From: a virus
Taxonomy: Duplodnaviria; Heunggongvirae; Uroviricota; Caudoviricetes
Strand: one strand, 5' to 3'
Virus record (IMG/VR): IMGVR_UViG_2667527666_000002
Location: 1 to 17,684 of that record
Length of the DNA stretch: 17,684 bases
Each line of letters starts with the position of its first letter. Positions within the stretch are counted from its first letter, which is position 1. This document shows, in pieces, positions 1,255 through 17,684 of the stretch. The position numbers were made by a program, and so were the translations under genes. The notes beneath the pieces were generated by a model. It saw nothing but the letters and a program-made list of their open reading frames with translations. It did no database searches and was not told the DNA's origin.

Positions 1255-1260
1255 ATAAAA

Positions 1261-1320: not shown

Positions 1321-1368
1321 TTTAACCTTGTCCACCGTGATTCACGTTCGTGAACATGTCCTTTCAGG

Positions 1369-1444: not shown

Positions 1445-1458
1445 TTTAAATCAATAAG

Positions 1459-2823: not shown

Positions 2824-3128
2824 TATTTCACCTCTTGCTGTGTCATTGTTGAAAAATGGATACCAGCTCGTTGCTGCCAGACGATCCAACCGAGAGTCAT
2901 ATCCCATGCCATGTATTCGTTATCGCCGTTTTTTGCTCTCCGACGATCTACTAAGTCACCGAAACGCTTTTCCATGAATAATTCATAGGCTTCGCGTTCA
3001 TCTGGCTCTACTTCCAGAGATACGAGTGCGATTTCATAAGCACGGCGCTCAATATCGTCTCGAACCTCTAGGCTGCTGATTCGTTCTTTGATTTCTTTAA
3101 TCAGTTCTTTATTGGTAAATGTGGTCAT
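2823..3128 (-). CDS. Hypothetical early-left phage protein, 101 aa, acidic (yfdT-like by position and length, from memory)
   Basis: ORF with ATG at 3128 overlapping the upstream gene's stop (TAATG coupling); protein-like composition; last gene but one before xis in a co-directional operon. Confidence 0.55.
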   Translation of the reverse strand: MTTFTNKELIKEIKERISSLEVRDDIERRAYEIALVSLEVEPDEREAYELFMEKRFGDLVDRRRAKNGDNEYMAWDMTLGWIVWQQRAGIHFSTMTQQEVK

Positions 3129-3490
3129 TATGCTCCAGCCTCCGGTGCTTTTGGCATTACTGCCCAGTGAGTGATATTGACGTTTTCAAGGTCCCCGACC
3201 TGAAATGTCCACTGCCATTCTCCGGTTTCTTTTTGTCCCCAGGTGTACCAGAGAGAACGCCAGCCAATCAGCCAGCCTTCTCCATTAGCATCAAATAACA
3301 GAACACTTTCATTTGCTGGTGGCAGTTCAGCTGACACTGGTATTATTTTGTTTTCCAGTGCCGCACATTTAGCTTCAAGCGCGTCGAATTTACGTACCAG
3401 GTACTCAGCATTTGTTTCGTTCACTTTCAGATCTCGCGGTACACATTTCCCGCGAAGAAACCCTTCCATTTCGAAAACATTCATGCGCAT
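3128..3490 (-). CDS. DUF551-like phage protein, 120 aa
   Basis: C-terminal ...NITHWAVMPKAPEAGA resembles the DUF551 C-terminal motif (recalled, not searched); start ATG at 3490 with GGAG 9 nt upstream; stop overlaps the next gene's start. Confidence 0.6.
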   Translation of the reverse strand: MRMNVFEMEGFLRGKCVPRDLKVNETNAEYLVRKFDALEAKCAALENKIIPVSAELPPANESVLLFDANGEGWLIGWRSLWYTWGQKETGEWQWTFQVGDLENVNITHWAVMPKAPEAGA

Positions 3491-4017
3491 TTGCGTAACT
3501 CCGATAAATCGTTAAAACGTTCCATAAACATCCCGTAGGCATGACCCGGTGCCAGTGGAATCACGTTGAACATCTCTGTTGCCGGGATGCCTTCCAGTAC
3601 AGGCCAGAAAGAGCCATCATCAAGCCCGAGATCGCGGCGTTCGGTTGCCAGCATGATGAGATCGGCATATTTCACGGGTGTACTCATAACTGGGGGTAAC
3701 CCGTATTTCTCACGGATTACGGCGTCTATTTTTTCTTCCATCCGTTTATAGTCAGGAAGAAGGCGTTTCAGTGGTGCGGGAATGTCCTGGCAATACGCTT
3801 CTGTTGCATCATGCATTAACGCTTCAAAAGCAAATTCCTGCGGCACCAGCTGGCTGCAAAGAACCGCATGTTGGGCGACGCTGTAGAAGTGCGAAAGATG
3901 ACCGGCAAAGCGACAGATATTTGAAAGGGAAACCGCGATATCGTTAATATCGATGTCGTCTTTATTTATCTTGTCATAATAAAAATGCTTCCCGGAAAAA
4001 GTTTTAATAAATGACAT
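3481..4017 (-). CDS. HD-domain phosphohydrolase (YfdR-like putative 5'-deoxynucleotidase), 178 aa
   Basis: Contains the H...HD metal-binding signature (SVAQHAV ... LMHDATEAY); start chosen at the ATG at 4017 (MSFIKTF) preceded by GGAG 8 nt upstream, rather than the GTG at 4044 used in the ORF track. Confidence 0.75.
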   Translation of the reverse strand: MSFIKTFSGKHFYYDKINKDDIDINDIAVSLSNICRFAGHLSHFYSVAQHAVLCSQLVPQEFAFEALMHDATEAYCQDIPAPLKRLLPDYKRMEEKIDAVIREKYGLPPVMSTPVKYADLIMLATERRDLGLDDGSFWPVLEGIPATEMFNVIPLAPGHAYGMFMERFNDLSELRKCA

Positions 4018-4110
4018 TTTGTTCTCCACGTATATGCACTGCACCGCGCTGAATTCTGGTAAAAGGAAGCCCTCACCATCCGGTGATTATTGAGTTAATT
4101 ACGTTTCCAT

Positions 4111-4132
4111 AAATGCCCCCGCAGGGGCATTT
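4111..4132 (-). terminator. Perfect 9-bp palindromic hairpin (AAATGCCCC-CGCA-GGGGCATTT) between the 274-aa gene and the HD gene; possible intra-operon attenuator
   Basis: Inverted repeat seen directly. The U residues lie within the stem ends rather than in a clean downstream U-tract, so terminator function is uncertain. Confidence 0.35.
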
Positions 4133-4144
4133 GCAGTAATGAAA

Positions 4145-4969
4145 TCAGGCGGTGAAAGTACCAATAAAGGTTTCTACTTTGCTGTCTTTGAATTTCTCAA
4201 CAAGCAGATCACGAAATTCGTTAGCCATTTCTTCCTGCACCGCTTCCAGCTGAATAATGCGCAGAACCAGTACAGGACGATCGCCAGTGATAATGCTGAG
4301 GCGTAATTTAAACGGACGTTCTTTCAGACCTTCAAACGGAACGCATTTAAATTCAAATGTCACTGGCATAATGTCTTTGGTCTTCGCTTCGACAGACTCC
4401 ATCAGGGAGCGTTTGCCGCTGAAGTCATTATCTTCAAAATCAGCGGTCTGGTTCGCTTCAATTGTGATTTTACGGATCGCCGCAGCCGCTTTGGTTGCCT
4501 GAATGGCGTCACCATTAGCATCAAAGCCCACAAGGTAGTCGGCCCAGTCTTCAATCCATTCTGCCAGTGACTTCTGGGAGTTACGCTCGCCGTTAACAGA
4601 CAACAGGGCAGAGAACGGTGCTGTCTTTTTCAGTTTGAGAGTGGCGGTGTTATCTGCGTGACCTGGTTCATCAATAGTACCCAGGTTAAGCACACTGACG
4701 GCTCGCATATTATCGGCATCGATAAAGCAGCGGGTGCCTTCATCTGCAAGATCTTTAGAATAACGGGTAAAGTCATCGATGCTGGCAGTGGAAAGCGCAC
4801 CACGGAAACGGAAGCGATTTAAATTAAATTTTTCCAGATCATGAATGCGGAAATTCTCAGGCAATGCCACAGCATCGGCACCAATCTTACTGATAATTTC
4901 ATTAACACCCTGAGCAGAAATAAGGGCATGGATTTGATTAATTGCGGTTGCGTCTAAGTTCTGAGACAT
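4145..4969 (-). CDS. Hypothetical phage protein, 274 aa (YfdQ-like)
   Basis: Long ORF with ATG at 4969 and GAGGA 8 nt upstream; size and neighbours (120-aa gene upstream, HD gene downstream) match the recalled yfdP-yfdQ-yfdR order of CPS-53. Confidence 0.7.
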
Positions 4970-5034
4970 AATAAGTCCTCACTATATAAAGATATTCAGT
5001 GATGAGATAAATAATCAGTTTATTAAGAACGATA

Positions 5035-5397
5035 TTAATGACCTGCTGCGCGTAGTTTTCCGTCAGGTTCACCGGCAAGAGTCAGTAATTGTCCCTGGTC
5101 TTCCTGCAGAATAGTCAGGCGACCACCGCGATTGACATACATCGGCGTTTCGGTGGTGTCTTCTTCGGAAATTTTCCCGCGGTTAGTTGGGCGAACATAT
5201 GAGAGTTTGTGTTTGATTTTCACACGGTTCTCATCAAACGGTTCGATTTCCAGGTTGAGCGAGACCTTACCTTTGGTTTTCGTGTTCATCACACCGGAAG
5301 CGACTTCACTGAGAACAGCGCCGATTTTGGTTTCAAATACGCCGCCGTCCAGCTCCCCGATAAATGCCTGCACATCAGTACTGCGTTCGCTAGCCAT
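5035..5397 (-). CDS. Hypothetical phage protein, 120 aa (YfdP-like); first gene of the leftward early operon
   Basis: Start set at the internal ATG at 5397 (MASERSTDVQ...) preceded by GAGGAG 9 nt upstream; the longer 197-aa ORF in the track has a non-protein-like N-terminal extension running into the structured leader. Confidence 0.65.
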   Translation of the reverse strand: MASERSTDVQAFIGELDGGVFETKIGAVLSEVASGVMNTKTKGKVSLNLEIEPFDENRVKIKHKLSYVRPTNRGKISEEDTTETPMYVNRGGRLTILQEDQGQLLTLAGEPDGKLRAAGH

Positions 5398-5445
5398 TTT
5401 GCTGCTCCTCATCATATCGACCCTGCAAGGTCGGTTGGTTTCTCC

Positions 5446-5580
5446 ACAAAACAGAGAAGAACACCTGCGGTGACTGCCGCCCGGATGGATTGGGTTATGA
5501 GCCCGTCGTCCGGTGATTCTCTTCTCTGTTTTGTAAAAAGAGCGGTACCAGCCGGAAGCAAGGGTACAAACTGGTACCGC
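5446..5580 (-). other. Structured element: perfect 15-bp inverted repeat (5446-5460 / 5520-5534, 59-nt spacer) followed by a 10-bp stem (5542-5551 / 5571-5580); candidate cis-acting RNA in the early-left leader
   Basis: Both inverted repeats read directly from the sequence; they lie about 50 nt upstream of the first early-left start codon in a region with no convincing ORF. The strand is assumed from the surrounding operon. Confidence 0.35.
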
Positions 5581-5999
5581 CAAAGCAGTGGCTGTTGTGG
5601 TGGGGTTGTCACTCAGGCGTATGGTCAACCTGACAATCCGGTGCCCTCAACGGGGAAAGAGTAACCCCGCCATACTTACCGCCGCGCCATTTCGCGGATT
5701 ACCACAACGCTGAGAGCACTTAGCCAGTTACGGCACCACACTTTGTCGCGGCTCCATAAATGCCCTCATCGTTGCACCCTGGTCTCTTCCCAGGCGTCAA
5801 ACCGAATCGCCACGCTGGTTAGGCGTCTTATCAGCATCATCATTGACTTGCACATTCCGGCTACCTGGTTTGTTTGCCCGAGCAAGGAGTGGATTGTCCC
5901 CTTTAACGTCCCCAGACCGCTAACGACGCATGTGCCATACGCCGTGTTACAACCAAATTTTGTTAGTACCTTGTTTGTTTGTCTGGAAAGAAAGATAAA

Positions 6000-6050
6000 A
6001 TGAAGTTGCGCATTATGCAAGTGTTTTTGTTGCGAGATATGCAATTTAAA
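6000..6050 (-). promoter_or_regulatory. Candidate OL/pL: two operator-like sites TTGCGCATTATGCAA (6006-6020) and TTGCGAGATATGCAA (6030-6044)
   Basis: Two 15-bp TTGCG-N5-TGCAA dyads 24 bp apart, matching the motif found in the cI-cro intergenic region; located just beyond the end of cI where lambdoid phages place OL/pL. Promoter -35/-10 hexamers are not confidently assigned. Confidence 0.45.
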
Positions 6051-6061
6051 GGGTAATGAAA

Positions 6062-6079
6062 AGCCACCTTTGGGTGGCT
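6062..6079 (-). terminator. Candidate terminator of the repressor gene (stem AGCCACC / GGTGGCT, 4-nt loop)
   Basis: Hairpin about 20 nt beyond the cI stop on the minus strand, followed there by UUU then CAUUACCCUUUAAAUU; the U-tract is short, so the call is moderate. Confidence 0.4.
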
Positions 6080-6099
6080 AATTGATGAGGAGGTAAGGG

Positions 6100-6792
6100 T
6101 TAATTGTGTCGCTTAAGGGTTTGTGACTGGCTGATTAAGACCTTTCCAAAGACCATAAACCGGTGTTCATTTTCGCTGGTAATTCCCCATTCACGGTAAA
6201 TCTGGTTATCAGAAATCACCAGTAGTTTGTCAGGTATCATTTGCAGTCGTTTGACATAAATTTTATCATCAAAACCAAATACATAGATACCATCTCCATC
6301 AAACTGATTGATACTGACATCAACGAAGATGAGATCTCCTGGCTCAATGGTTGGACACATACTGTCCCCACGAACGTTGATAACTTTAATGTGATTGGCT
6401 GGCCGTCCGCCAAACATCGATACAGCATTATCAGTTCTGTATTCAATGGCATGAATCACATCAATGACATCACCGCCCTGGATAAGGCCATTTCCCGCAC
6501 TGGCACTGACATCCAGCATTTCAATACGGAATACATCCTTCACCTGCGCAACATCCTCACTAATACTGTTTTTACATACAGTATTACTTTTGACGTCTGA
6601 GGTAAAGAGATCAGCAATATCAACACCTAAGCTCCTGGCAATATTACTCAGGGCTTGTTCAGTGAATTGTTTCTGCTTACCTGTTTCCAGGCGTGAGATA
6701 TTCGCCGCATCCACTCCTATTGCTTCAGCGAGATCGGCGATTTTCATGTTCTTCGCCTGGCGAAGTTGTCTGACTCGGTTTCCTATGTTCAT
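6100..6792 (-). CDS. cI: CI-like prophage repressor (N-terminal XRE-type HTH, C-terminal S24/LexA-type self-cleaving peptidase), 230 aa
   Basis: N-terminal HTH (IADLAEAIGVDAANISRLETG); Ala-Gly cleavage-site candidate (SASAGNG); catalytic Ser in GDSM and Lys in YVKRL; divergent from a Cro-like gene. Confidence 0.9.
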   Translation of the reverse strand: MNIGNRVRQLRQAKNMKIADLAEAIGVDAANISRLETGKQKQFTEQALSNIARSLGVDIADLFTSDVKSNTVCKNSISEDVAQVKDVFRIEMLDVSASAGNGLIQGGDVIDVIHAIEYRTDNAVSMFGGRPANHIKVINVRGDSMCPTIEPGDLIFVDVSINQFDGDGIYVFGFDDKIYVKRLQMIPDKLLVISDNQIYREWGITSENEHRFMVFGKVLISQSQTLKRHN

Positions 6793-6889
6793 GCGTTTAT
6801 TACATTTCTTTATTGCGCGTTAAGCAAATCAACTTGCGCAAAATATTTGCGTGAAATAATATGCTCATCACGCAATATGTGGAGGTCAT
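6793..6889. promoter_or_regulatory. Immunity-region operator/promoter (OR with divergent pRM and pR): operator TTGCGCGTTAAGCAA (6813-6827), palindrome CGCAAAATATTTGCG (6837-6851), candidate pR -35 TTGCGC (6834-6839) and -10 TAATAT (6857-6862)
   Basis: 97-bp divergent intergenic region between cI and cro containing dyad repeats of the same TTGCG family as the OL candidates, with centres 24 bp apart; sigma70-like hexamers with 17-bp spacing upstream of cro. Confidence 0.6.
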
Positions 6890-7150
6890 ATGCAATCACC
6901 ATTACGGAATGTGCGTAAGGCGCACGGATTTACTTTGCAGCATGTTGCTGCTGGCGTTCAGGTCAATCCAGCGACGCTGAGTCGTATTGAAAGACTGGAA
7001 CAAATTCCATCTATCGATCTTGCAGAACGTCTGGCCAATTTTTTTAAGGGTGAAATCAGCGAAATGCAGATTCTTTATCCGGCACGTTTTCAATCTAGCC
7101 AAAACCAGAATGGGTTTAAACCACAGGAACAGGAGGTAAGCCGTGGGTAA
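6890..7150 (+). CDS. cro: Cro-like XRE-family HTH regulator, 86 aa
   Basis: ATG at 6890 with GGAGG 5 nt upstream; HTH motif (LQHVAAGVQVNPATLSRIE); divergent from cI. Confidence 0.8.
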   Translation: MQSPLRNVRKAHGFTLQHVAAGVQVNPATLSRIERLEQIPSIDLAERLANFFKGEISEMQILYPARFQSSQNQNGFKPQEQEVSRG

Positions 7151-7700
7151 TCATCACTGGAAAGTGGAAAAACAGCCTGAGTGGTACGTGAAAGCTGTCA
7201 GAAAAACTATCGCGGCGTTGCCGGGGGGTTACGCTGAAGCTGCTGAGTGGCTGGATGTAACAGAGAACGCATTATTTAACCGCCTTCGTGCCGATGGCGA
7301 TCAGATTTTCCCGCTGGGATGGGCAATGATTTTACAACGTGCTGGTGGCACTCACTTCATTGCCGACGCTGTGGCGCAGTCTGCAAATGGCGTCTTTGTG
7401 TCTCTTCCTGACGTCGAGGATGTGGACAATGCCGATATTAACCAGCGTTTACTGGAAGTCATTGAACAGATCGGCAGTTATTCAAAACAGATTCGTTCGG
7501 CAATCGAAGACGGTGTAGTGGAACCGCATGAGAAGACAGCAATTAACGACGAGCTGTACCTCTCAATTTCGAAGCTGCAGGAGCATGCAGCACTTGTCTA
7601 CAAAATTTTTTGCGTTTCAGAAAGTAATGACGCCCGCGAGTGTGCAGCTCCGGGCGTCGTGGCGTCGATTGCTTCTGGTTGTGGAGAAACTAACGCATGA
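7143..7700 (+). CDS. Phage regulatory protein, 185 aa, at the CII position (CII / YdaT-like)
   Basis: GTG start at 7143 with AGGAGGT 6 nt upstream; 8-nt overlap with the end of cro; its stop overlaps the next ATG (ATGA). Function inferred from position only. Confidence 0.6.
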
Positions 7701-8035
7701 ACAGTTTAACAACACACTACCGTCGCTCGCAACTGATTGCGCTTCCTGTACCGGGTGGAAAAGCGAAGGTGGAGTATTGCTATGCAGTAAATGTACCAGG
7801 TGACAGGGAAATTGTAACCCACAGCTTTGCTGAGTGGGCTGTGGGAGATTTCAACCGGCAGAAGGAGACAGTCCTTTGCGACAAGTTAACCGCTGGTTCA
7901 AAGATCACTACGGAGTGCCCGTCAGAGTCATTCGTTGGGAGCCGGAAACACAACGGGTTATCTACCTCCGTGAAGGCTATGAGCATGAGTGCTTCAGCCC
8001 GCTCGAACAGTTTCGTCGTAAATTCAGGGAAATAG
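7697..8035 (+). CDS. Hypothetical protein, N-terminal frame (start translationally coupled to the upstream gene); possibly the 5' part of a frameshifted gene
   Basis: ATG at 7697 overlaps the upstream stop (ATGA); first 60 codons are protein-like, the remainder of this frame is low-complexity. Confidence 0.3.
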
Positions 8036-8055
8036 AGGTCGGTCATGAGCACTAA
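7834..8055 (+). CDS. Hypothetical small protein, C-terminal frame (...[39 protein letters not shown]...); true start unclear (a TTG near 7876 follows GAAGGAG)
   Basis: Protein-like frame whose stop at 8053-8055 overlaps the next gene's start at 8045 by 11 nt, as expected for a genuine operon member. Confidence 0.3.
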
Positions 8056-8386
8056 ATTAACCGGCTATGTATGGGATGGTTGCGCTGCGTCAGGCATGAA
8101 ATTATCCAGCGTGGCAATTATGGCCCGCCTGGCTGATTTCAGTAATGACGAAGGTGTGTGCTGGCCATCAATTGAAACTATTGCCCGTCAGATTGGCGCG
8201 GGGATGAGTACCGTCAGAACGGCTATCGCACGGCTGGAAGCAGAAGGCTGGTTAACGCGTAAGGCGCGTCGCCAGGGTAACCGCAATGCGTCGAATGTTT
8301 ATCAGCTTAACGTTGCGAAGCTTCAGGCAGCGGCATTTTCTCAACTGTCAGATTCTGACCCGTCAAAATCTGACGCATCAAAATGA
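8045..8386 (+). pseudogene. Replication-initiator (O-like / winged-HTH N-terminal domain) gene, 3'-truncated by the IS629 insertion
   Basis: N-terminal HTH-type domain ([13 protein letters not shown]...SIETIARQIGAGMSTVRTAIARLEAEGWL); the ORF ends on the TGA formed by the first three bases of the IS inverted repeat (8384-8386); no C-terminal domain. Confidence 0.6.
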
Positions 8387-8425
8387 ACCGCCCCGGGTTT
8401 CCTGGAGAGTGTTTTATCTGTGAAC

Positions 8426-9316
8426 TCAGGCTGCCAGATCATCGTTTCCGATGGAAGCATAATAAGCTTTTTCTGCTTCTGCCGGAGGAGTATGGCCCAG
8501 CCTTTCCAGCAATCGTCGATTGTTATACCAGTCCACCCACGTGAGTGTGGCCAGTTCCACTTCTGCACGGTTTTTCCAGCTCTTACGGTGTATTACCTCC
8601 GCTTTGTAAAGACCATTGATGCTCTCCGCCATCGCGTTGTCATACGAGTCGCCTGTACTTCCTGTTGATGCCAGTAATCCGGCTTCCTTAAGCCGCTGTG
8701 TGTAGGCCAGCGATACATACTGAGAACCTTTATCACTGTGATGGACCGTGCCGGACGGTCGACGGGCCCATAACGCCTGCTCCAGTGCATCCAGCACGAA
8801 TGTCGTTTCCATGGACGATGAGACCCGCCACCCCACGATGTATCCGGCAAACACATCAATGATGAACGCCACATAGACGAAGCCCCGCCATGTGCTGACG
8901 TAAGTAAAATCAGCCACCCACAGCTGGTCAGGTCGTTCTGCCACGAACTGACGGTTTACGCGGTCGCCTGCGGCAACGGCTTTCCGGCTGATGGTCGTAC
9001 GGACCTTTTTACCCCGGAGAACACCGGCAAGTCCCATAACCGCCATGAGACGTGCCACAGTGCATCTGGCCACTCTGATACCTTCCCGTAACAACTGACG
9101 CCAGACTTTACGCACACCGTATACCTTGTGATTTTCATCGTATACGCGCTGTATCTCTTTCTTCAGCCAGTCATCGCGCTGCGCACGGGCACTGCGTTTA
9201 TCCGGATGATGTCGCTGTTGCTGACAGTGGTAATACGTTGACGGGGCAATATGCAGTTCGCTGCATAGCGGTCCGACCCCGTACTGCTCACGCAGCTTAT
9301 CCAGCAGTGGCATCAT
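8426..9316 (-). CDS. IS629-like transposase OrfB (DDE/integrase catalytic domain), 296 aa
   Basis: Translation [29 protein letters not shown]... with a DDE-type core (WVADFTYV ... HSDKGSQY ... [10 protein letters not shown]). Confidence 0.9.
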
Positions 9317-9639
9317 TTTTTCCAGAGGCGGTCGAACTCCGCCTTCGCAAAATAAGCGGAAGCCTGGCGAAGGATATCGTTACTGCGGCGCAGTTCACGA
9401 TTTTCACGTTCCAGCTCTTTCAGACGCTGACGTTCAGCGGTGGTGAGCCCTCCATCACCGCCCCCGGTATCCCGCTCATGCTGGCGAACCCAGACACGCA
9501 GAGTCTCCGGCGTACAGCCAATCTTTGGAGCAATGGAACAAATTGTCGCCCATTGTGAGTCATATTCGCTCTGACTTTCCAGAACCATACGGACTGCCCG
9601 TTGACGGACTTCGGGGGAAAAACGAGTATTTTTAGTCAT
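9313..9639 (-). CDS. IS629-like transposase OrfA (HTH), 108 aa
   Basis: Translation [42 protein letters not shown]...; identical to the orfA of the second copy at 17358-17684. Confidence 0.9.
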
Positions 9640-9693
9640 CCTGTTTACCTCTTTCTCAGGAAGTTTAGTCTCCAGGATTCCCGGGGCGGTTCA

Positions 9694-10238
9694 ATTAACA
9701 CCCTGTTTGGCCCGTTTGTTCTGGATCTGTTCACTGACGGTGATAACGCCAAATGTGCTGCGTATTACACGGCGGAAGACAACGCGCTGGCGCATGACTG
9801 GTCAGAACGCCTTGCGGAGCTTAAAGGTGCTGCCTTTGGTAATCCCCCATACAGCCGCGCCAGTCAGCATGAGGGGCAATACATCACCGGCATGCGTTAC
9901 ATCATGAAGCATGCCAGTGCCATGCGTGATAAAGGCGGGCGCTATGTTTTCCTGATCAAAGCTGCCACCAGCAAGTGTGGTGGCCGGAAGATGCAGATCA
10001 TATTGCTTTTATTCGCGGGCGTATTGGTTTTGAACTGCCTGCCTGGTTTATCCCGAAGGATGAGAAGCAGGTGCCGACAGGCGCTTTCTTCGCTGGTGCT
10101 ATTGCTGTTTTCGACAAGACCTGGAAGGGACCGGCAATCAGCTACATCGGGCGCGATGAACTTGAGGCATGTGGTGAGGCCTTTCTGGCGCAGGTTCGCC
10201 AGCAGGCAGAAAAACTGGTCAGGGAGATGGCGGCATGA
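9694..10238 (+). pseudogene. Phage Dam-type DNA N6-adenine methyltransferase remnant: 5'-truncated at the IS boundary and frameshifted near 9960-9980
   Basis: Frame 1 immediately after the IS reads INTLFGPFVLD...FGNPPYS (NPPY catalytic motif); the C-terminal part (VWWPEDADHIAFIRGRIGF...) continues in another frame (ORF 9975-10238), whose stop overlaps the next gene's ATG. Confidence 0.6.
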
Positions 10239-10561
10239 CGACGTTAACTCAATGCCAGCAGCAGGTGCTGGATATGCTGATTTCTTATCAGAAAGAACGT
10301 GGCTTCCCGCCAACCAATCAGGAGGTGGCAACCATGCTGGGATACCGTTCAGTGAATGCAGCGGTGGAGCATCTTCGCGCACTGGAGAAAAAAGGCGTCA
10401 TCACGATAAAGCGTGGCGTGGCCCGGGGCATCACGCTTCATACCGCGGTGAAGGACGACGACAGCGAGGCGGTCGGGATTATCCGCTCACTGCTTGCCGG
10501 TGAGGAAAACGCAAGGCTGCGTGCAGCCCACTGGTTACATGAGAGGGGCCTGAAAGTATGA
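10235..10561 (+). CDS. LexA N-terminal DNA-binding-domain-like protein, 108 aa, without peptidase domain
   Basis: MTTLTQCQQQVLDMLISYQKERGFPPTNQEVATMLGYRSVNAAVEHLRALEKKGVI resembles the LexA winged-HTH domain; no S24 domain follows; start/stop coupled to neighbours. Confidence 0.6.
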   Translation: MTTLTQCQQQVLDMLISYQKERGFPPTNQEVATMLGYRSVNAAVEHLRALEKKGVITIKRGVARGITLHTAVKDDDSEAVGIIRSLLAGEENARLRAAHWLHERGLKV

Positions 10562-10947
10562 AGCTGATCCTGCCTTTTCCGCCCAGCGTGAACACGTACT
10601 GGCGACACCCCAACAAAGGGGCGTTTGCTGGTAAGAGCCTGATAAGCGCGGCGGGGCGAAAATTCCAGAGCGCGGCGTGCGCAGCAATAGTTGAGCAGTT
10701 ACGTCGTCTGCCGAAACCAACGTCGGCACCTGCTTCAGTGGAGATCGTGTTGTTTCCTCCGGATAACAGGATCCGCGATCTGGACAACTATAACAAGGCG
10801 CTGTTTGACGCCCTGACCCACGCGGGGGTGTGGGAAGACGACAGTCAGGTGAAAAGAATGCTGGTGGAGTGGGGACCGGTTATCCCGGAAGGGAAGGTCG
10901 AGATCACTATCAGTAAGTACGAGAAAACGGCGGGTGCAGCTGCCTGA
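10558..10947 (+). CDS. rusA: RusA-family Holliday-junction resolvase, 129 aa
   Basis: Conserved RusA features: LPFPPSVNTYWRH near the N-terminus and RDLDNYNKALFDALT acidic catalytic region. Confidence 0.85.
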   Translation: MKLILPFPPSVNTYWRHPNKGAFAGKSLISAAGRKFQSAACAAIVEQLRRLPKPTSAPASVEIVLFPPDNRIRDLDNYNKALFDALTHAGVWEDDSQVKRMLVEWGPVIPEGKVEITISKYEKTAGAAA

Positions 10948-10966
10948 TTAAGAGGAGAAACGAAGT

Positions 10967-11776
10967 ATGAATAATCTGATGGTCATTGATGGTATTGAAG
11001 TTCGTCGTGATGCTTATGGGCGTTACAGCCTGAACGATCTGCATCGCGCAGCAGTAGCATCTGGTGCAAATGCCAGAACCAAGGAGCCAGGAAAGTTTCT
11101 TTCCAGCCAACAAACTGTTGAGCTTGTTCATGAATTAACCAACACCCAGAATTTGGGTGTTGACCCGGTGAGCGTGATTCATGGGGGAAATGAACGGGGA
11201 ACGTATGTCTGTAAGGAACTGGTGTATGCCTATGCAATGTGGATCAGCCCGTCATTCCATCTGAAGGTGATCCGTACTTTCGATATGGTAACCAGCGCGC
11301 CGGAAAAGTTATCCGGACAGGCTGCTGACAAGATGCAGGCTGGCGTGATTCTGCTGGACTTTATGCGCCGGGAGTTAAATCTGTCTAACTCATCTGTGCT
11401 TGGGGCCTGTCAGAAACTCCAGGAGGCTGTTGGCTTACCGAATCTGGCACCGCGCTATGCCATTGATGCACCTGCTGACGCGCCTGATGGCTCAAGCCGC
11501 CCCACGCTGTCGCTGAGTGCACTGCTGAAGCAGTATGGTATCCGCCTGACGGCTAATCAGGCATATCACCAGATGGCGAAGCTGGGGATCGTTGAACAAC
11601 GCGAACGATACAGCCGTACCGCGATTAACAACATCAAAAAATTCTGGTCGCTGACAGCGAAAGGCTGCATGTTCGGCAAGAACATCACCAGTCCCGCAAA
11701 TCCGCGCGAGACGCAGCCGCATTTCTTCGAATCCCGATTCCCTGAGCTGTTAAAGCTGCTCGATACCGTTCATTGA
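10967..11776 (+). CDS. KilA-N domain antirepressor-like protein, 269 aa
   Basis: N-terminal KilA-N/APSES-type domain (IDGIEVRRDAYGRYSLNDL ... GTYVCKELVYAYAMWISPSFHLKV); RBS AGGAG upstream of the ATG at 10967. Confidence 0.75.
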   Translation: MNNLMVIDGIEVRRDAYGRYSLNDLHRAAVASGANARTKEPGKFLSSQQTVELVHELTNTQNLGVDPVSVIHGGNERGTYVCKELVYAYAMWISPSFHLKVIRTFDMVTSAPEKLSGQAADKMQAGVILLDFMRRELNLSNSSVLGACQKLQEAVGLPNLAPRYAIDAPADAPDGSSRPTLSLSALLKQYGIRLTANQAYHQMAKLGIVEQRERYSRTAINNIKKFWSLTAKGCMFGKNITSPANPRETQPHFFESRFPELLKLLDTVH

Positions 11777-11777
11777 G

Positions 11778-12773
11778 GTGACCGTGAGAGCACTACTGAC
11801 CCCTGAAATTGCCCCGCGTATGGGGATCGTATTGTTCAGGCCAGGTTCAGAGCTGATGCCCCTGTTTATGCAGGGGCGTGTCCTGCTGGAGCCTGAGCCG
11901 GAACGTTATTCATCTTTTGCCAGTGGTGCCGTTCCGGCTGCATCACAACCGCTGGCGGATGATCCTGCCGTTCGGGCCGTGTTCCGCAATGAGGCAGTGA
12001 TCCGTCGTGCTGGTGGCGTGGAATGTCTTGAAAGCTGGTTACTTCGTGAAAAAGGCTGCCAGTGGCCTCATTCCGACTGGCACAGCGAGAACATGACCAC
12101 AATGCGACACGCGCCGGGCGCAATCCGTCTGTGCTGGCACTGCGATAACCAACTGCGCGATCAGTTCACGGAACGGCTGGAATCAATGGCAACGGATAAC
12201 TGTGCCCGCTGGGTGTTGTCTGTTGTGCGTCGGGATCTCGGTTTTGATGACAGTCACGTTGTGACAATGCCGGAACTGTGCTGGTGGCTGATTCGTAATG
12301 ATCTGGCGGATGCCTTACCGGAAAGTGCAGCCCGTAAGGCACTGAGATTACCGAAGCCTGTTGTGCCGTCTGTCACCCGGGAAAGTGACCTGGTGCCTTC
12401 GGTTCCTGCCACCAGCATCATCCAGGATAAAGCGAAAAAGGTGCTGGCGCTGAAAGTGGATCCGGAGTCGCCGGACTCTTTTATGTTACGCCCAAAACGT
12501 CGCCGCTGGGTTAATGAAAAGTACACGCGATGGGTTAAGACGCAGCCGTGCGCATGTTGTGGAAAACCTGCTGATGATCCCCACCACCTGATAGGCCACG
12601 GTCAGGGTGGAATGGGGACAAAAGCGCATGACCTCTTTGTGTTGCCTTTGTGCAGAAAGCATCACGACGAGCTGCATGCGGATAATGTGGCATTCGAAGA
12701 GAAGTATGGCTCCCAGCTGGAGCTGATATTTCGTTTTATCGATCGTGCGCTGACGATTGGTGTGCTGGCCTGA
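11778..12773 (+). CDS. DUF968-like nin-region protein, 331 aa, with C-terminal Cys/His (HNH-like) cluster
   Basis: C-terminal motif [43 protein letters not shown]; exact start uncertain (GTG at 11778 or 11784). Confidence 0.65.
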
Positions 12774-12790
12774 TTTTGTGGAGAAAGTTG

Positions 12791-13174
12791 ATGCGTGATA
12801 TTCAGATGGTTCTTGAGCGTTGGGGAGCGTGGGCGGCTAATAATCATGAAGATGTGACCTGGTCGTCCATTGCCGCCGGTTTTAAGGGATTAATTCCTTC
12901 AAAAGTAAAATCTCGCCCGCAATGTTGTGACGATGACGCGATGATCATTTGCGGGTGCATGGCCCGTCTGAAAAAGAACAACAGCGATTTGCACGATTTA
13001 TTAGTAGATTATTATGTAGTCGGTATGACATTCATGTCACTGGCAGGTAAGCATTGCTGCTCTGATGGTTATATCGGGAAAAGGTTACAAAAAGCTGAGG
13101 GCATAATTGAAGGGATGTTAATGGCATTAGATATCTGGTTAGAGATGGATATCGTTGTTAATAACTCTAATTAA
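12791..13174 (+). CDS. Q: Late-gene antitermination protein Q (short Q family), 127 aa
   Basis: Start at the ATG at 12791 with GGAG 8 nt upstream (the ORF track's 12776 start is a TTG); last gene of the nin-like block, in the position Q occupies upstream of the lysis cassette. Confidence 0.7.
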
Positions 13175-13207
13175 TATGCCAATTGTTTACTAAAAATTAT
13201 TAAAAAT

Positions 13208-13225
13208 GGGGCGTTGAGACGCCCC
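13208..13225 (-). terminator. Candidate intrinsic terminator for the porin gene (stem GGGGCGT / ACGCCCC, 4-nt loop, followed on the minus strand by AUUUUUAAUAAUUUUU)
   Basis: Hairpin and U-rich tract read directly; lies about 140 nt beyond the porin stop, after three further hairpins. Confidence 0.4.
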
Positions 13226-13363
13226 CAAAAATAAAGGGTAATATATAACAGAAGGTTTATATAGTTAGAAGCAAGGTTGTGCTTCTAAAGGAAGTGGCTT
13301 GAGGGAGCCACTTATATGTTGGGGAGGCAACGCCTCCCGCAACATATCTTTTTCGTAATCAGA

Positions 13364-14446
13364 TTAGAACTGGTAAACCAGACCTACAGCAACGATGTCA
13401 TCAGTATCAATACCAGCTGTTTTGGTAAACTTACTATCGTCAATTAAGTTGATTTTGTAATCAACAAAAGTGGACATGTTTTTATTAAAGTAGTAAGTAG
13501 CACCGACATCGACATACTTGACTAAGTCTCGGTCACCATGAACACCAAGGTCTTTACCTTTTGACTGAAGGTAAGCAACAGATGGGCGCAGACCGAAGTC
13601 AAACTGATATTGTGCTACTGCTTCAAAGTTTTGTGCTTTGTTTGCAATATGGTTATTACCAAAAACGGTCATATTCTGAGTTTCAGAATATGTGGTAGCC
13701 AGATAGATATTGTTCGCATCATATTTCAGGCCTGCAGCCCATACTTCCGCATTTTTGCCGGAGGCATTGAATTTGCTCTTACCATAGGCGACCTGACCGT
13801 CAGTGCGATCTGATTTAGCATAGGTTGCACCCACGCCGAATCCTTCATACTCATAAGTAGTGGAGAAACCGAAACCATCACCATTGGCTTCAGTTACGTC
13901 AGTGCGGTCATTTTTACCCTGATACTGAGCAGCAAAGTTCAGGCCATCGACCAGACCAAAGAAGTCGTTGTTACGATAAGTTGCAACACCAGTAGTGCGA
14001 CCAGTCATGAACACATCTGTTTGGGTCCAGGTATCACCACCGAATTCTGGCAGGACGTCAGTCCACGCACCGATGTCGTATGCTACACCGTAGTTACGGC
14101 CGTAATCGATTGAGCCGTAATCACCAAATTTCAGGCCTGCAAATGCAAGACGGGTTTTGTCTTTGGAAGAACCTTGAGATTCAGCGCGGTTGCCTTTGAA
14201 TTCATATTCCCACTGACCGAAACCAGTCAGTTGATCGTTGATTTGGGTTTCACCTTTGAAGCCAAGACGGGCATAAGTAGTATCACCATCATCTGCATCA
14301 TTAGAGGAGAAGTAGTGCTTAGCATTAACTTTCCCGTACAGATCCAGCTTGTTACTGTCTTTATTATAAATTTCAGCTGCCTGAGCAGACATCGCCATCA
14401 GTACTGATGCAGCTACAGCAGAAATTGCCACTGTTAATTTTTTCAT
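13364..14446 (-). CDS. General-diffusion outer-membrane porin, OmpC/NmpC/Lc family, 360 aa precursor
   Basis: Signal peptide ending AQA-AE; mature N-terminus [17 protein letters not shown] typical of OmpC-family porins; C-terminal ...VGLVYQF beta-barrel signature; opposite strand to flanking phage late genes. Confidence 0.92.
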
Positions 14447-14874
14447 CGTGAGCCCTTTTTTTTGAACTATTATTAAAAAATGATGTCACTGCGCGATAAA
14501 TATTCATCTAATCAATGTGATTATTTCAAGATGTAAGTTTTGGTTTCTCGTTTGATTTGTGAAGTAGATCTCTATTTTTATCTGAACTTTTTTCTATCGA
14601 ATCCTATTCATAGCTCTTGGCTGAATAAAAATAAATCTATTAGCCAATTTATACTAACGGTTGTTATTTATAAGTGCTCTATAATTTGAAGGTTCAATTT
14701 AAATCGGCTAAAAATAACACTGGAAATTATTTGTTGGTTATTTGTTGAGATTTGCTTATGTATTTGTAGTGGTGTTTTCAATACTCGGTAGCATTCTCGC
14801 AAATATCATTTAGTGGTTTACGTACGTAAAAAATTGGTTATGCTGTTAAGAGTGGTTACTTCGTCACACAGCTT

Positions 14875-14908
14875 AAACCCGCCGTCGAGCGGGTTTTTCC
14901 ATTTTTTG
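14875..14908 (+). terminator. Intrinsic terminator (8-bp stem AAACCCGC / GCGGGTTT, then TTTTTCCATTTTTT), candidate tR' about 115 bp upstream of the holin gene
   Basis: Perfect stem followed by a T-rich tract on the plus strand; no plus-strand gene ends upstream, consistent with a short terminated late-promoter leader transcript. Confidence 0.6.
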
Positions 14909-15019
14909 AGTCTCGATATTAGCTGATAACCCAATACCTGAGTTATTCACTGACTTCGAGTCTGTTACGTTTCGTAGTATTCCCTCAATTTACACCCGCT
15001 TTGTCTGCGAGGTGGGGTT

Positions 15020-15235
15020 ATGAAATCCATGGATAAGTTAACAACGGGTGTCGCCTATGGCACCTCAGCAGGTAGTGCCGGGTACTGGTTTTTACAGCTG
15101 CTAGATAAAGTCACGCCCTCACAGTGGGCGGCAATTGGAGTGCTGGGTAGCCTGGTATTTGGCCTGCTGACGTACCTGACAAACCTTTATTTCAAGATTA
15201 AAGAAGATAAGCGTAAGGCTGCGAGAGGTGAATAA
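15020..15235 (+). CDS. S: Phage-21-type class II holin (pinholin), 71 aa
   Basis: Two predicted TM helices with the glycine-zipper-like [10 protein letters not shown]; basic C-terminus [11 protein letters not shown]; stop overlaps the endolysin start (TAATG). Confidence 0.9.
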
Positions 15236-15732
15236 TGTCGCCATCATTACGCAAGGCTGTAGCAGCTGCTATTGGTGGTGGGGCTGTTGCCATAGCGTCT
15301 GTGCTCATCACTGGTCCGAGTGGTGACGATGGTCTGGAAGGTGTCAGCTACATACCATATAAAGATATTGTTGGTGTATGGACTGTATGTCACGGGCATA
15401 CAGGAAAAGACATCATGCTCGGTAAAACGTATACCAAAGCAGAATGCAAAGCACTCTTGAATAAAGACCTTGCCACTGTCGCCAGACAAATTAACCCGTA
15501 CATCGAAGTCGATATACCGGAAACAACGCGCGGCGCTCTTTACTCATTCGTTTACAACGTGGGTGCTGGCAATTTCAGAACATCGACGCTTCTTCGCAAA
15601 ATAAACCAGGGCGATATCAAAGGCGCATGTGATCAGCTACGGCGCTGGACATACGCTGGCGGTAATCAATGGAAAGGACTGATGACTCGCCGTGAGATTG
15701 AGCGTGAAGTCTGTTTGTGGGGGAAACAATGA
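15235..15732 (+). CDS. R: SAR (signal-anchor-release) endolysin, lysozyme-like, 165 aa
   Basis: N-terminal Gly/Ala-rich SAR domain ([20 protein letters not shown]) followed by a lysozyme-type catalytic domain; stop overlaps the Rz start (ATGA). Confidence 0.92.
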
Positions 15733-16187
15733 GCAGAGTAACCGCGATTATCTCCGCTCTGGTTATCTGCATCATCGTCTGCCTGTCATGGGCTGTTAAT
15801 CATTACCGTGATAACGCCATTACCTACAAAGCCCAGCGCGACAAAAATGTCAGAGAACTGGAGAAGGCGAACGCCACCATCGCTGACATGCGGAAGCGTC
15901 AACGTGATGTAGCAGAACTCGATGCAAGATACACAAAGGAGCTTGCTGATGCTAACGCGACTATCGAAAGTCTCCGTGCTGATGTTTCTGCTGGGCGTAA
16001 GCGCCTGCAAGTCGCCGCCACCTGTGCAAAGTCAACGACCGGAGCCAGCGGCATGGGCGATGGAGAAAGCCCAGGACTTACAGCAGATGCTGAACTCAAT
16101 TATTACCGTCTCCGAAGTGGAATCGACAAGATAACCGCGCAGGTTAACTACCTGCAGGAATACATCAGGACGCAATGCCTGAAATAA
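15729..16187 (+). CDS. Rz: Rz i-spanin, 152 aa
   Basis: ATG at 15729 overlapping the endolysin stop; N-terminal TM helix ([17 protein letters not shown]) followed by a coiled-coil-like periplasmic domain. Confidence 0.8.
15949..16134 (+). CDS. Rz1: Rz1 o-spanin lipoprotein, about 61 aa, embedded in the +1 frame of Rz
   Basis: Signal peptide [20 protein letters not shown] with lipobox VSAC, then proline-rich [13 protein letters not shown]; lies entirely within Rz in a different frame. Confidence 0.7.
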
Positions 16188-16219
16188 TTTTTTTGCAAAT
16201 CACAAAGTCCATTTAATGA

Positions 16220-16241
16220 GCCTCGCGATGCGGGGCTTTTT
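16220..16241 (+). terminator. Intrinsic terminator after the lysis cassette (stem GCCTCGC / GCGGGGC with one G-U pair, 3-nt loop, then TTTTT)
   Basis: GC-rich hairpin immediately followed by a T5 run, 33 nt after the Rz stop. Confidence 0.5.
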
Positions 16242-16248
16242 GCAATAA

Positions 16249-16273
16249 ATGCGTACCGCAACGCATGTTTTTT
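16249..16273 (+). terminator. Second tandem terminator-like hairpin (ATGCGT / ACGCAT, then GTTTTTT)
   Basis: 6-bp stem followed by a T6 run directly downstream of the first terminator. Confidence 0.4.
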
Positions 16274-16388
16274 ACACCGAACCTGCCCCTTTGGAATGGG
16301 CCTTTGAGGATACCAGTTAGTGCTGGCGAGCCTCGGTGGGCTGGTTTCCTGTGCGGCAAAGGTTCATTTCAAAGAGTAGGTACACGCT

Positions 16389-16886
16389 ATGAAATCATTA
16401 ACCCTCTTCAATTAACCAATTCGTATCGGTGAAGATGGCATGATCTGCCTCACTGATATGTGGAAAGCCAGTGGTAAAAGTGAATCTGAATCGCCTTACC
16501 ACTACCTGCGAAACAAGCAGACCAAAGAGTTCTTAGCCGAGCTGGAGAAAAACCACGAATCTGTGGTTTTTACTGAGCGCGGTGTACACGGTGGAACATA
16601 TGGCGGGAAGTTTGTTGCTTACGATTATGCGGCTTGGTTAAACCCCGGGTTCAAGTACGCGGCCTATAAAGTCCTCGATGACTACTTCACCGGAGAACTT
16701 CAGCATCGCAACAGCTTAAGTGCGCAGCTCAACATGAAATGTCATGAGTTTGACCAGAAGAAAGACATGGCGAGCTTCTGCGGACAAGGGCTGGCAGCAT
16801 GGCGCTATACTAAGCCAGTGTTGGTCGCTGAGATTAACTCCCTGGCTAACCAGCTGCAGATTACGATCCCCGGGCTTCCGGGATGA
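16389..16886 (+). pseudogene. KilA-N domain gene, paralogous to 10967-11776, with an in-frame TAA at codon 9 (16413-16415); a product may still be made from the internal ATG at 16440
   Basis: ATG at 16389 (MKSLTLFN), in-frame TAA, then the same frame continues PIRIGEDGMICLTDMWKASGK...GTYGGKFVAYDYAAWLNPGF (KilA-N signature), aligning with the N-terminus of the intact paralog. Confidence 0.5.
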
Positions 16887-17146
16887 GTGATCATGTTATT
16901 GAATGCGCCTCCAGAGCGGGGCGCGACTTCTCAGAGTTCATGAAAGGCGAGAAGGGCATGATGGAAGCATTGGCCTCGGTGGACGAGTTTGGCGAGCAGC
17001 TGCGCCTCAACGGCTGTGTCAATCATCACTTTGTTAGCTACATGATGCGGAACTCGATCATGCAGGCATTCATGGACATGGCAAAAGCCGAGAGGAAAGA
17101 AGAGCGCCGGCGTAAGCGAGCGGAAGCAAAAGCAAAAGTGAAGTAG
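16883..17146 (+). CDS. Hypothetical phage protein, 87 aa, Lys/Arg/Glu-rich C-terminus
   Basis: ATG at 16883 overlaps the upstream stop (ATGA coupling); protein-like composition; no family recognised. Confidence 0.5.
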   Translation: MSDHVIECASRAGRDFSEFMKGEKGMMEALASVDEFGEQLRLNGCVNHHFVSYMMRNSIMQAFMDMAKAERKEERRRKRAEAKAKVK

Positions 17147-17303
17147 CCATTACAAAGCCCATTTACGGGTGGGCTTGATAATGAAACCGGAATTTATTCT
17201 GGGCCACCAGTTAACGGCAGTACCACGAAACAACCCAAGCCAGTAAGTGGGGAAATAACACCGGCAGCCACTGAAAGATGAACCTCCTGCCTTATGGCAA
17301 AAA

Positions 17304-17684
17304 TGAACCGCCCCGGGAATCCTGGAGACTAAACTTCCTGAGAAAGAGGTAAACAGGATGACTAAAAATACTCGTTTTTCCCCCGAAGTCCGTCAACGGG
17401 CAGTCCGTATGGTTCTGGAAAGTCAGAGCGAATATGACTCACAATGGGCGACAATTTGTTCCATTGCTCCAAAGATTGGCTGTACGCCGGAGACTCTGCG
17501 TGTCTGGGTTCGCCAGCATGAGCGGGATACCGGGGGCGGTGATGGAGGGCTCACCACCGCTGAACGTCAGCGTCTGAAAGAGCTGGAACGTGAAAATCGT
17601 GAACTGCGCCGCAGTAACGATATCCTTCGCCAGGCTTCCGCTTATTTTGCGAAGGCGGAGTTCGACCGCCTCTGGAAAAAATGA
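17304..17684 (+). mobile_element. Second IS629/IS1203-like element, opposite orientation to the first, truncated by the window end
   Basis: Left inverted repeat TGAACCGCCCCGGGAATCCTGGAGACTAAACTTCCTG begins at 17304 and matches the reverse complement of 9657-9693; orfA follows. Confidence 0.9.
17358..17684 (+). CDS. IS629-like transposase OrfA, 108 aa
   Basis: Translation identical to the OrfA of the first IS copy; stop TGA at 17682-17684. Confidence 0.9.

Follow-up and report, generated by a model that had tools for sequence, protein, structure and literature searches.

IS629 is abundant in the prophages of E. coli and causes both gene inactivation and IS-adjacent deletions, which range from a few nucleotides to more than 40 kb (PMC9943667, PMC7430833). 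Chromosomal inversions by homologous recombination between inverted IS or prophage copies have been described in E. coli and Shigella, among them the large O157:H7 rearrangements (PMC8743559, PMC7430833). In these, inverted identical repeats exchange their flanks, the recombinant copies lose their matched target duplication and a gene block becomes reversed relative to its neighbours. The cryptic lambdoid prophages of K-12 (DLP12, Rac, Qin, CPS-53, and CP4-6 at thrW) show inactivated integrases and broken replication modules.

The window analysed here is a stretch of 17,684 nucleotides, in which the thrW tRNA gene is adjoined by a decayed lambda-like prophage carrying two identical IS629 copies. 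With the IS629 of O157:H7 and other STEC prophages (PMC9943667, PMC7430833) it shares the element itself (1310 bp, orfA/orfB, 100% identical copies in E. coli), the lambdoid prophage habitat, the gene truncation and a flanking deletion without target duplication, while there is no O157-type context here and the host is not among the complete RefSeq genomes. The missing target duplication and the reversed gene block resemble the inversions mentioned above; in this case, however, the inversion would be a local one that reaches from the prophage spacer to ykgA (probably tens of kb); its joint is seen in one scaffold, and its reciprocal junction was not found. The thrW site, the inactivated integrase and the broken replication module are as in the K-12 prophages, but the genes differ, with a yfd-like early region and, in the relatives, a lambda-like late region, and the decay is visibly IS629-driven. 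In our estimation the probability is about 60% that this is a defective thrW prophage with both IS629 copies at secondary rearrangements, a deletion at copy 1 and an inversion between copy 2 and ykgA. The event is of a known kind, ordinary IS-driven genome decay.

Besides proA and thrW, the window contains a lambdoid prophage that has suffered several lesions. The sole scaffold identical to the window was KQ087962.1 (L055; 100%, no Ns), and L003 was 100% identical to window positions 6883-17684 (window coordinate = L003 coordinate + 6882). Among the complete E. coli genomes of RefSeq (n=5,426) no record covered at least 80% of the window, and the J2, J3 and copy 2-ykgA junctions were all absent; a complete prophage near-identical to that of the window was not found in RefSeq, the best reaching 96.9%. 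The left part of the window has the following features.

1..1254, plus strand: proA (glutamate-5-semialdehyde dehydrogenase), the chromosomal left border (ORF; aligns to the annotated proA of L001)
1369..1444, plus strand: thrW, tRNA-Thr(CGT), attachment site of the prophage (ARAGORN)
1459..2596, minus strand: integrase pseudogene, split into ORFs of 108 aa and 284 aa (1459..1785, 1742..2596)
within 2473..8035: early region, with yfdP/Q/R-like genes on the minus strand (L001 comparison)
6100-6792, minus strand: cI-like XRE/S24 repressor of the early region (Pfam on the identical L003)
6890-7150: cro-like HTH, early region
7143-7700: Phage_CP76, early region
7697-8035: 112-aa ORF, early region
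8045..8386, plus strand: truncated O-like replication initiator, 113 aa, HTH_36 (313 aa in the intact relatives L006 and L008)

An integrase beside a tRNA-Thr gene (the same succession is annotated in L001), a cI/cro switch, a replication module, Q and lysis genes were found in the canonical order of a lambdoid prophage. The early region (2473..8035) is collinear with the annotated L001 at 98% identity, its Pfam matches being taken from L003. Compared with the intact 372-aa integrase of L001, the integrase has a 26-bp deletion at about 1769. Its frameshifted integrase and truncated replication module make the thrW prophage a remnant, and with the loss of O/ori and the displacement of the late genes it is dead.

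Self-comparison of the window gave exactly one long repeat, the inverted pair 9313-9696 / 17301-17684. Reading base by base, the identical part was 9313-9693 versus 17304-17684, 381 nt with zero mismatches, which is far beyond chance. The extension of the repeat by 3 nt past the IS ends was rejected as a chance match of the flank, which contains one mismatch (9694 a opposite 17303 a); the repeat arms given by the tool, flank included, have 1 mismatch in 1313. The two copies were resolved as follows.

8384..9693, minus strand: IS629 copy 1, complete, 1310 bp, IRR end at 8384 and IRL end at 9693
8426-9316, minus strand: orfB of copy 1
9313-9639, minus strand: orfA of copy 1
17304..17684, plus strand: first 381 nt of IS629 copy 2, with the IRL end and orfA (17358-17684)

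The last codon of the window is the orfA stop of copy 2 (17684); in L003 this copy is complete, 1310 bp with 0 differences from copy 1. The terminal repeats of copy 1 are imperfect and start TGAACCGCCCCGGG, the ends being TGAACCGCCCCGGGAATCCTGGAGA at IRL and TGAACCGCCCCGGGTTTCCTGGAGA at IRR (reverse complement). A length of about 1.3 kb with imperfect terminal inverted repeats is that of IS629, and so are the two overlapping ORFs, orfA (108 aa, HTH_Tnp_1) and orfB (295/296 aa; HTH_21, rve and rve_3, of the DDE/rve integrase fold). Their overlap reads ggaaaaaatgatg, the A-run of which is a predicted -1 frameshifting site. A set of 20 full copies from other E. coli genomes matched the element at 100% over its 1310 bp, and matching copies are labelled 'IS3-like element IS629 family transposase' in RefSeq. 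Judged by its length, ORFs, ends and RefSeq-labelled matches, the element is IS629 of the IS3 family. The preliminary description of this DNA had reported two near-identical, inversely oriented IS629 copies (8384-9693 minus, from 17304 plus) whose orfA-proximal ends face each other across a methyltransferase-to-KilA-N segment, and this was correct: the IRL ends at 9693 and 17304 face inward, 7,610 bp apart, and enclose the genes from a dam remnant to a KilA-N gene and an 87-aa ORF.

The comparison with related genomes, proposed in the same description, revealed that copy 1 replaces 1,199 bp of the prophage. Window positions 1-8384 aligned to L001 12001-20404 and positions 9693-13036 to L001 21604-24948, the gap opposite copy 1 being L001 20405-21603, and the same gap was obtained against L006/L008. 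Both of these IS-free prophages keep the 1,199 bp, and their identity to the window on the two sides of copy 1 is 100% and 99.95%. What was lost is the 3' two-thirds of the O-like gene with some of its iterons, the PerC/yfdN-like gene in its entirety and, from dam, the first 107 nt. The break of the O-like gene falls within iteron-like repeats, visible at this place in L001, and the TGA stop of the truncated ORF is formed by the first three bases of IS629. The exact 113-aa protein was detected on 305 contigs, the longest of which was KQ087962.1, and the J2 junction is also present in L010. On the other side of copy 1 the dam remnant carries in addition a 1-bp deletion at 9973, and only an 87-aa Dam fragment was called. 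Copy 1 would have landed in or near the replication module, where the 1,199-bp deletion is now found; the deletion may have been made by the transposase adjacent to the IS, with or without IEE, or by recombination between two direct IS copies.

The flanks were read directly as aaaa-IS-att at copy 1 ('caaaa' before and 'attaac' after the element) and as aaaaa-IS-gac at copy 2. A 3-bp target-site duplication was absent at both copies, while 13-14 of 20 other IS629 copies possess it. The missing duplication favours secondary rearrangement and is no argument against the IS629 identity; neither copy is a simple insertion and both mark secondary rearrangements. The pentamer caaaa, which had been noticed at both flanks, is present at copy 1 (8379-8383), but the flank of copy 2 ends in aaaaa (17299-17303, with c at 17298) and is off by one base. 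These A-rich flanks abut opposite IS ends, the IRR of copy 1 and the IRL of copy 2. Since they read tttt / aaaa in IS orientation, they do not form the two sides of a single target duplication, and an A-rich flank common to both copies has no mechanistic meaning.

Copy 2 lies 157 nt past the 87-aa ORF, at the end of an intergenic region.

17147..17303, no strand: intergenic spacer with the insertion site of copy 2 (L002 sequence and annotation; L005-L008)

In the relatives the empty site reads ggcaaaaaa/gattctttg, and DUF1398, ylcI, nohD and the terminase gene come after it; this terminase region was not found at this point beyond copy 2. The second copy had been thought to replace the cos/terminase region. 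That region is indeed missing, but copy 2 sits in the spacer and its far end is joined to ykgA. Beyond 17684, where a search for structural genes had been recommended, KQ087962.1 contains the complete copy 2 followed by ykgA-fdeC-ecp and not by structural genes. The IRR end of copy 2 abuts the chromosomal ykgA 159 nt before its stop codon, the right flank 'gactgggtgcg' being position 3001 of L013, inside ykgA. The last 159 nt of ykgA are followed in L003 and L055 by fdeC(-), ykgR, ykgM, ykgO, ykgL and ecpRABCDE(+). L009-L012 share the J3 junction, with the IS at 17304.

The standard order of this chromosomal region is rclABC, ykgA(+), fdeC(-), ecp(+), pao, thrW(-), proA(-), thus the joint places the ykgA-fdeC-ecp block in reverse relative to proA. 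In the clone-mate scaffold KE701649.1, which has the same FdeC allele, the un-inverted arrangement fdeC-'ykgA-IS629-rclC could be observed, and the IS629 has the orientation required for inversion against copy 2. This ykgA copy has a 1,025-bp deletion on its IRL side and no duplication, and the 5' part of ykgA is gone. Taken together, the data point to copy 2 and an IS629 in ykgA, not copies 1 and 2, as the endpoints of a larger inversion. Copy 2 would first have entered the spacer that separates the 87-aa ORF from DUF1398/nohD and would then have recombined with an oppositely oriented IS629 in ykgA of the same clone. Such an exchange would invert the late half of the prophage, pao, ecp, fdeC and the 3' end of ykgA, and would leave the IRR end of copy 2 against the reversed ykgA-fdeC-ecp. 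The joint is directly present in one scaffold; that it represents a true inversion, as well as the location of the partner copy, we infer from the sequences.

Since the IS copies are identical, an assembler could mis-pair their flanks, and the four junction sequences would be alike under either linkage. The joint might be an assembly artefact: the genome would carry a simple IS629 insertion in the prophage spacer and another in ykgA, the wrong flanks would have been paired across the identical copies, and the inversion would be only apparent. The simple linkage would then be J3-IS-(aaaagattctttg... DUF1398) and (rclC side)-IS-ykgA'-fdeC, and the window's copies would still be real. We regard this as unlikely. 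It is in agreement with it that copy 2 is spanned by KQ087962.1 alone, that KE701649.1 ties ykgA'-IS to the rclC side, that the short-read contigs all end inside the IS, and that the partner junction was not found by scans of three collections and the Z look-up. The predicted partner copy (rclC-side flank ...cgaactaatt, IS629, and aaa(a)gattctttg on the DUF1398 side) was not retrieved, the J4 pattern (IS-IRR followed by aaa(a)gattctttg) giving 0 matches in exact scans of the viral, genome-representative and metagenome collections. YlcI and both OrfB forms were far too common to trace the scaffold by exact-protein look-up. The truncated YkgA (residues 1-232 and the IS TGA) was rejected as a marker of the partner junction; the exact protein exists but is not diagnostic, since the places shown were either W233 nonsense alleles (TAG or TGA) of independent origin or contigs stopping at GACT(G). 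Against mis-pairing, no Ns interrupt either IS in L003 and L055, the same scaffold spans copy 1 with a sensible local deletion, and repeats of 1.3 kb are usually resolved by mate-pair or long-read scaffolds. The 1,025-bp deletion at the ykgA IS of the clone-mate indicates, too, that rearrangements at these copies are real in the clone.

Somewhat more doubtful is a loss of the late half (cos, terminase, head and tail genes) by deletion, with or without an earlier inversion, copy 2 capping a truncated prophage. The L005/L032-type Z allele of the closest relatives was not on KQ087962.1 in exact-protein look-up, and the only match listed there for the shared portal allele lies in another prophage, a Qin-like one at 1.80 Mb. 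Given these look-ups the late half may be lost or may have other alleles, and documented IS629-adjacent deletions reach more than 40 kb (PMC9943667). However, the tail alleles are mosaic among close relatives, thus failed exact-allele look-ups are weak evidence. A plain rightward deletion would leave what follows in standard orientation, whether pao/ecp on the minus strand or the genes from rclC onward, whereas the observed ykgA(+)-fdeC(-)-ecp(+) orientation requires an inversion step.

The 7.6-kb segment between the copies carries the following genes.

9694..10238, plus strand: remnant of dam (phage N6-adenine methyltransferase), first 107 nt missing at the IS
10235-10561, plus strand: LexA-like gene (Pfam on L003; same order in L001)
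10558-10947, plus strand: RusA (Pfam on L003)
10967-11776, plus strand: KilA-N (Pfam on L003)
11784-12773, plus strand: DUF968 (Pfam on L003)
12791-13174, plus strand: Q antiterminator (Pfam on L003)
13364..14446, minus strand: porin (OmpC/NmpC-like; Porin_1/Porin_4), prophage cargo between Q and the lysis genes
15020..16187, plus strand: lysis cassette of holin (15020-15235), lysozyme (15235-15732) and Rz-type spanin (15729-16187)
16440-16886, plus strand: second KilA-N/ORF11CD3 gene
16883-17146, plus strand: 87-aa ORF

It had been named a late and lysis segment; the S/R/Rz lysis genes are there, but with the dam remnant, LexA-like, RusA, KilA-N, DUF968, Q and porin genes the segment is not late. 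The preliminary description, partly supported as a whole, had proposed that homologous recombination between the copies could invert this segment. The inverted repeats, 1310/1310 identical and 7.6 kb apart, are recombination substrates, and RecA-mediated flipping between these perfect 1.3-kb repeats is possible. Nevertheless, a reading as two plain insertions whose main importance is to make the Q-lysis segment an actively flipping element is very improbable. The target duplication is absent at both copies and both show other rearrangements. The gene order and orientation of the segment are the same as in the IS-free near-identical prophages L006 and L008 and in L001, and this collinearity means that the orientation seen here is ancestral and the segment is not inverted. 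The opposite orientation was seen in none of the sequences reached, and the flanks lack the swapped pattern expected after an exchange between copy 1 and copy 2. Since the prophage is already dead, the orientation would be of little consequence, and the flipped segment has no obvious function. One scaffold spans both copies, and the short-read contigs (L010 and five similar ones) stop in the IS and would look the same in either orientation.

Three related candidates were rejected. A past inversion between copy 1 and copy 2 disagrees with the flanks ..aat/ttt.. and ..aaa/gac.., which show no swapped pairs, and with the collinearity of the segment; a composite transposon disagrees with the outer flanks, aaa (8381-8383) versus gac (L003 11732-11734), and with the cargo being in situ; and for a Hin/Gin/Pin-type invertase switch no resolvase/invertase domain was found among the segment's Pfam calls, the borders being the IS ends. 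That the 7.6-kb Q-porin-lysis module is a functional unit rather than debris, either switched (frequent flipping might decide whether early transcription induced by the SOS response extends to Q and the lysis genes) or mobile (a composite element might move the prophage porin and the lysis cassette), is hardly credible, the evidence at hand giving no sign of function or mobility.

With the deletion at copy 1 and the inversion between copy 2 and ykgA as the preferred reading, the locus has small significance beyond this strain, but it is a clear example of the dismantling of a prophage by IS629: the replication genes were deleted and the late genes parted from Q and the lysis genes, while the neighbouring block with the fdeC adhesin, the ecp pilus operon and probably pao would have been flipped. 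In annotation and typing, the prophage should be taken as non-functional; the identical IS copies make the local assembly ambiguous, and claims on orientation need reads longer than 1.3 kb. Q, the porin and the lysis genes were kept here, as nmpC and essD/rrrD/rzpD were kept in DLP12, and the counterpart of the porin in the relatives is annotated as ompC/porin.

The window opens with proA and thrW, after which a lambdoid prophage follows. Its gene order, based on an annotated relative (L001, 98% identical) and on Pfam calls on the identical scaffold region L003, is the following: integrase, yfdP/Q/R-like genes, cI-like repressor, cro-like gene, Phage_CP76, O-like initiator and the first IS629 copy; then dam, a LexA-like gene, RusA, KilA-N, DUF968 and Q; finally a porin (minus strand), holin, lysozyme, Rz, KilA-N, an 87-aa ORF and the second IS629 copy.

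Main features of the window
1-1254: proA
1369-1444: tRNA-Thr(CGT), thrW, from tRNA prediction
8384-9693, minus strand: IS629 copy 1, complete (1310 bp), junctions read base by base
8426-9316, minus strand: orfB of copy 1, ORF call
9313-9639, minus strand: orfA of copy 1, ORF call
17304 to the window end (the orfA stop codon), plus strand: start of IS629 copy 2, from junction reading

Judged from its sequence, the prophage is a remnant. The integrase gene (1459-2596) carries a 26-bp deletion around 1769 compared with the intact 372-aa gene of L001 and is split into ORFs of 284 and 108 aa; the prophage is thus probably trapped at its site. In dam, a 1-bp deletion at 9973, beside the IS truncation, causes a frameshift; since this is common to the IS-free relatives L006 and L008 and to L009, another assembly of the same prophage type, dam was already a pseudogene before the arrival of copy 1. 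The OmpC/NmpC-like porin gene (360 aa, 13364-14446, minus strand) is intact and flanked by Q and the holin gene, which run on the other strand; this location is typical for prophage cargo, and the gene has been kept although the phage is dead.

Self-comparison of the window gave a single long repeat, the inverted pair 9313-9696 / 17301-17684, in which the three extra bases of the arms are flank and not IS, and include one mismatch (1 in 1313). The identical part of the two copies is 381 nt (9313-9693 versus 17304-17684), and copy 2, which is complete in L003, is identical to copy 1. The ends are imperfect inverted repeats starting TGAACCGCCCCGGG, orfA encodes an HTH_Tnp_1 domain and orfB HTH_21/rve/rve_3 domains (Pfam), and an A-run is present in the orfA/orfB overlap. 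Over its whole length of 1310 bp the element is 100% identical to 20 complete copies in other E. coli genomes. Matching copies are labelled in RefSeq as 'IS3-like element IS629 family transposase'; by these sequence features the element is an ordinary IS629. The preliminary description had placed the copies correctly, at 8384-9693 on the minus and from 17304 on the plus strand, and the junction reading agreed that their orfA ends point toward one another. The caaaa pentamer said to end both flanks was found at copy 1 (8379-8383), while copy 2 is preceded by aaaaa (17299-17303) and the c lies one base further out, at 17298. These A-rich flanks abut opposite IS ends, therefore they cannot be one target duplication.

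Window positions 1-8384 match L001 12001-20404 and positions 9693-13036 match L001 21604-24948, so copy 1 stands in for 1,199 bp. The missing stretch is present in both L006 and L008, which show 100% identity up to 8384 and 99.95% over 9693-17303. The lost DNA runs from iteron-like repeats within the O-like gene, whose 3' part is gone, through the entire PerC/yfdN-like gene into dam, of which the first 107 nt are missing. It may have been lost by an IEE-assisted deletion adjoining the IS or by recombination between two direct IS629 copies. The left junction (window 8340-8383; L001 20370-20460) lies within the tandem iteron-like repeats (ccgtcaaaatctgacgcatcaaaatctgacccgtcaaaatttgatgcg) of the O-like gene, which are presumably the prophage origin, now half lost. 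The truncated O protein has 113 aa and ends at a TGA of IS629 itself; exactly this protein occurs on 305 contigs, of which KQ087962.1 is the longest, thus the O/IS629 junction is real and widespread in a clone.

A search for exact matches to the protein of the 87-aa ORF located L003 (GCA_001030635.1, scaffold KQ087962.1), 100% identical to window 6883-17684 with zero Ns. There the IRR end of copy 2, opposite to the orfA-proximal one, adjoins 'gactgggtgcg', i.e. position 3001 of the locus L013, inside the AraC-type gene ykgA and 159 nt ahead of its stop codon. Further on, KQ087962.1 carries fdeC(-), ykgR, ykgM, ykgO, ykgL and ecpR-A-B-C-D-E(+). Since the order in the closest complete genomes is rclABC, ykgA(+), fdeC(-), ecp(+), ykgJ, yagU, pao, island, thrW(-), proA(-), the ykgA-to-ecp block is reversed relative to proA in the source. 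The empty site in the IS-free relatives is the spacer ggcaaaaaa|gattctttg, followed by DUF1398, ylcI, nohD and the terminase gene.

A primary IS insertion normally leaves a target duplication. None was found at copy 1 (aaaa|IS|att) or at copy 2 (aaaaa|IS|gac); a 3-bp duplication was seen in 13-14 of the 20 other IS629 copies and none in 6 of them. The lack of duplications here fits secondary events at both copies.

The source FdeC allele is rare (61 contigs, the longest again KQ087962.1), and among the matches listed every contig with this allele has IS629 at the same ykgA site. In one of them, scaffold KE701649.1, the order is un-inverted, fdeC-'ykgA-IS629 being linked to the rclC side; the 5' part of ykgA has lost 1,025 bp there, and the IS is oriented opposite to copy 2. 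The junction at 17304 also occurs in L009-L012, further assemblies of this prophage type, of which L009 is without copy 1, and the junction at the copy 1 edge also occurs in L010. Inversions between repeats are well documented in E. coli. The simplest history would be an IS629 insertion in ykgA, old within the clone, another in the prophage spacer, and homologous recombination between these inverted copies, flipping all DNA in between; this gives exactly the observed joint of spacer, IS629 and ykgA'. Judged by K-12 gene orientation, KQ087962.1 would run in the standard sense both at proA and, 1.5 Mb away, at a Qin-like prophage, which would require a second breakpoint nearby. The predicted partner copy would read (rclC side ...cgaactaatt)|IS629|(aaa(a)gattctttg... 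DUF1398), or, in reverse after DUF1398, ccacaaagaatcttt(t)|TGAACC...IS629 (reverse)...|aattagttcgcttgatttggg (rclC side).

Exact-pattern scans of viral, genome-representative and metagenome collections for the junction of this copy with the DUF1398 side gave no match, and common proteins match too widely for a protein look-up of it. The Z allele of the relatives is absent from KQ087962.1, and the portal allele shared with them was seen on this scaffold only in another prophage. Since close relatives show a mosaic of tail alleles, these negatives are weak; they leave room for a loss of the late half of the prophage from the source genome. A mis-join of the scaffold is also possible, as the IS copies are identical, a single scaffold spans them, and the four junction sequences would be alike under either linkage.

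The preliminary description had proposed that the 7.6-kb segment between the copies could be inverted. It is collinear with the IS-free relatives and thus in ancestral orientation, and no swapped flank pairs between the copies, read in IS orientation (..aat/ttt.. and ..aaa/gac..), were found, so there is no trace of any past exchange between copies 1 and 2. Flipping via the perfect 1.3-kb inverted repeats would be possible, but of little consequence, since the integrase is dead, the origin broken and the late genes displaced. The segment is neither a composite transposon (no outer duplication, cargo in situ) nor a site-specific switch (no invertase gene among the Pfam calls). What actually took place is a deletion of 1.2 kb at copy 1 and most probably a larger inversion anchored at copy 2.

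IS629 is abundant in E. coli prophages and inactivates genes, and deletions adjoining it range from a few nt to >40 kb (PMC9943667, PMC7430833). The finding holds but is unremarkable: events of this kind are known, and the location is new.

Codon W233 of ykgA (L013 3004-3006), directly adjoining the IS629 insertion site of the source clone, carries nonsense mutations, TAG or TGA, in several unrelated contigs (L014-L018, L021, L023); ykgA appears to have been inactivated repeatedly by different routes. The prophage region seems to be a favoured target of IS3-family elements: in L007 (1-139), without IS at 17304, an IS629 IRL (orfA-proximal) end adjoins window position 15228, in L012 (1-128) an IS629 IRR end adjoins position 11270, and L040 (10882-12110) has a different IS3-family element in the same spacer between the 87-aa ORF and DUF1398. 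The Qin-like second prophage of the scaffold (L030, KQ087962.1 1795639-1817240) shares identical terminase, portal, protease and capsid proteins with relatives of the thrW prophage. An IS629 copy of its own lies 5.4 kb upstream of DUF1398, and the prophage thus offers added substrates for recombination between prophages.
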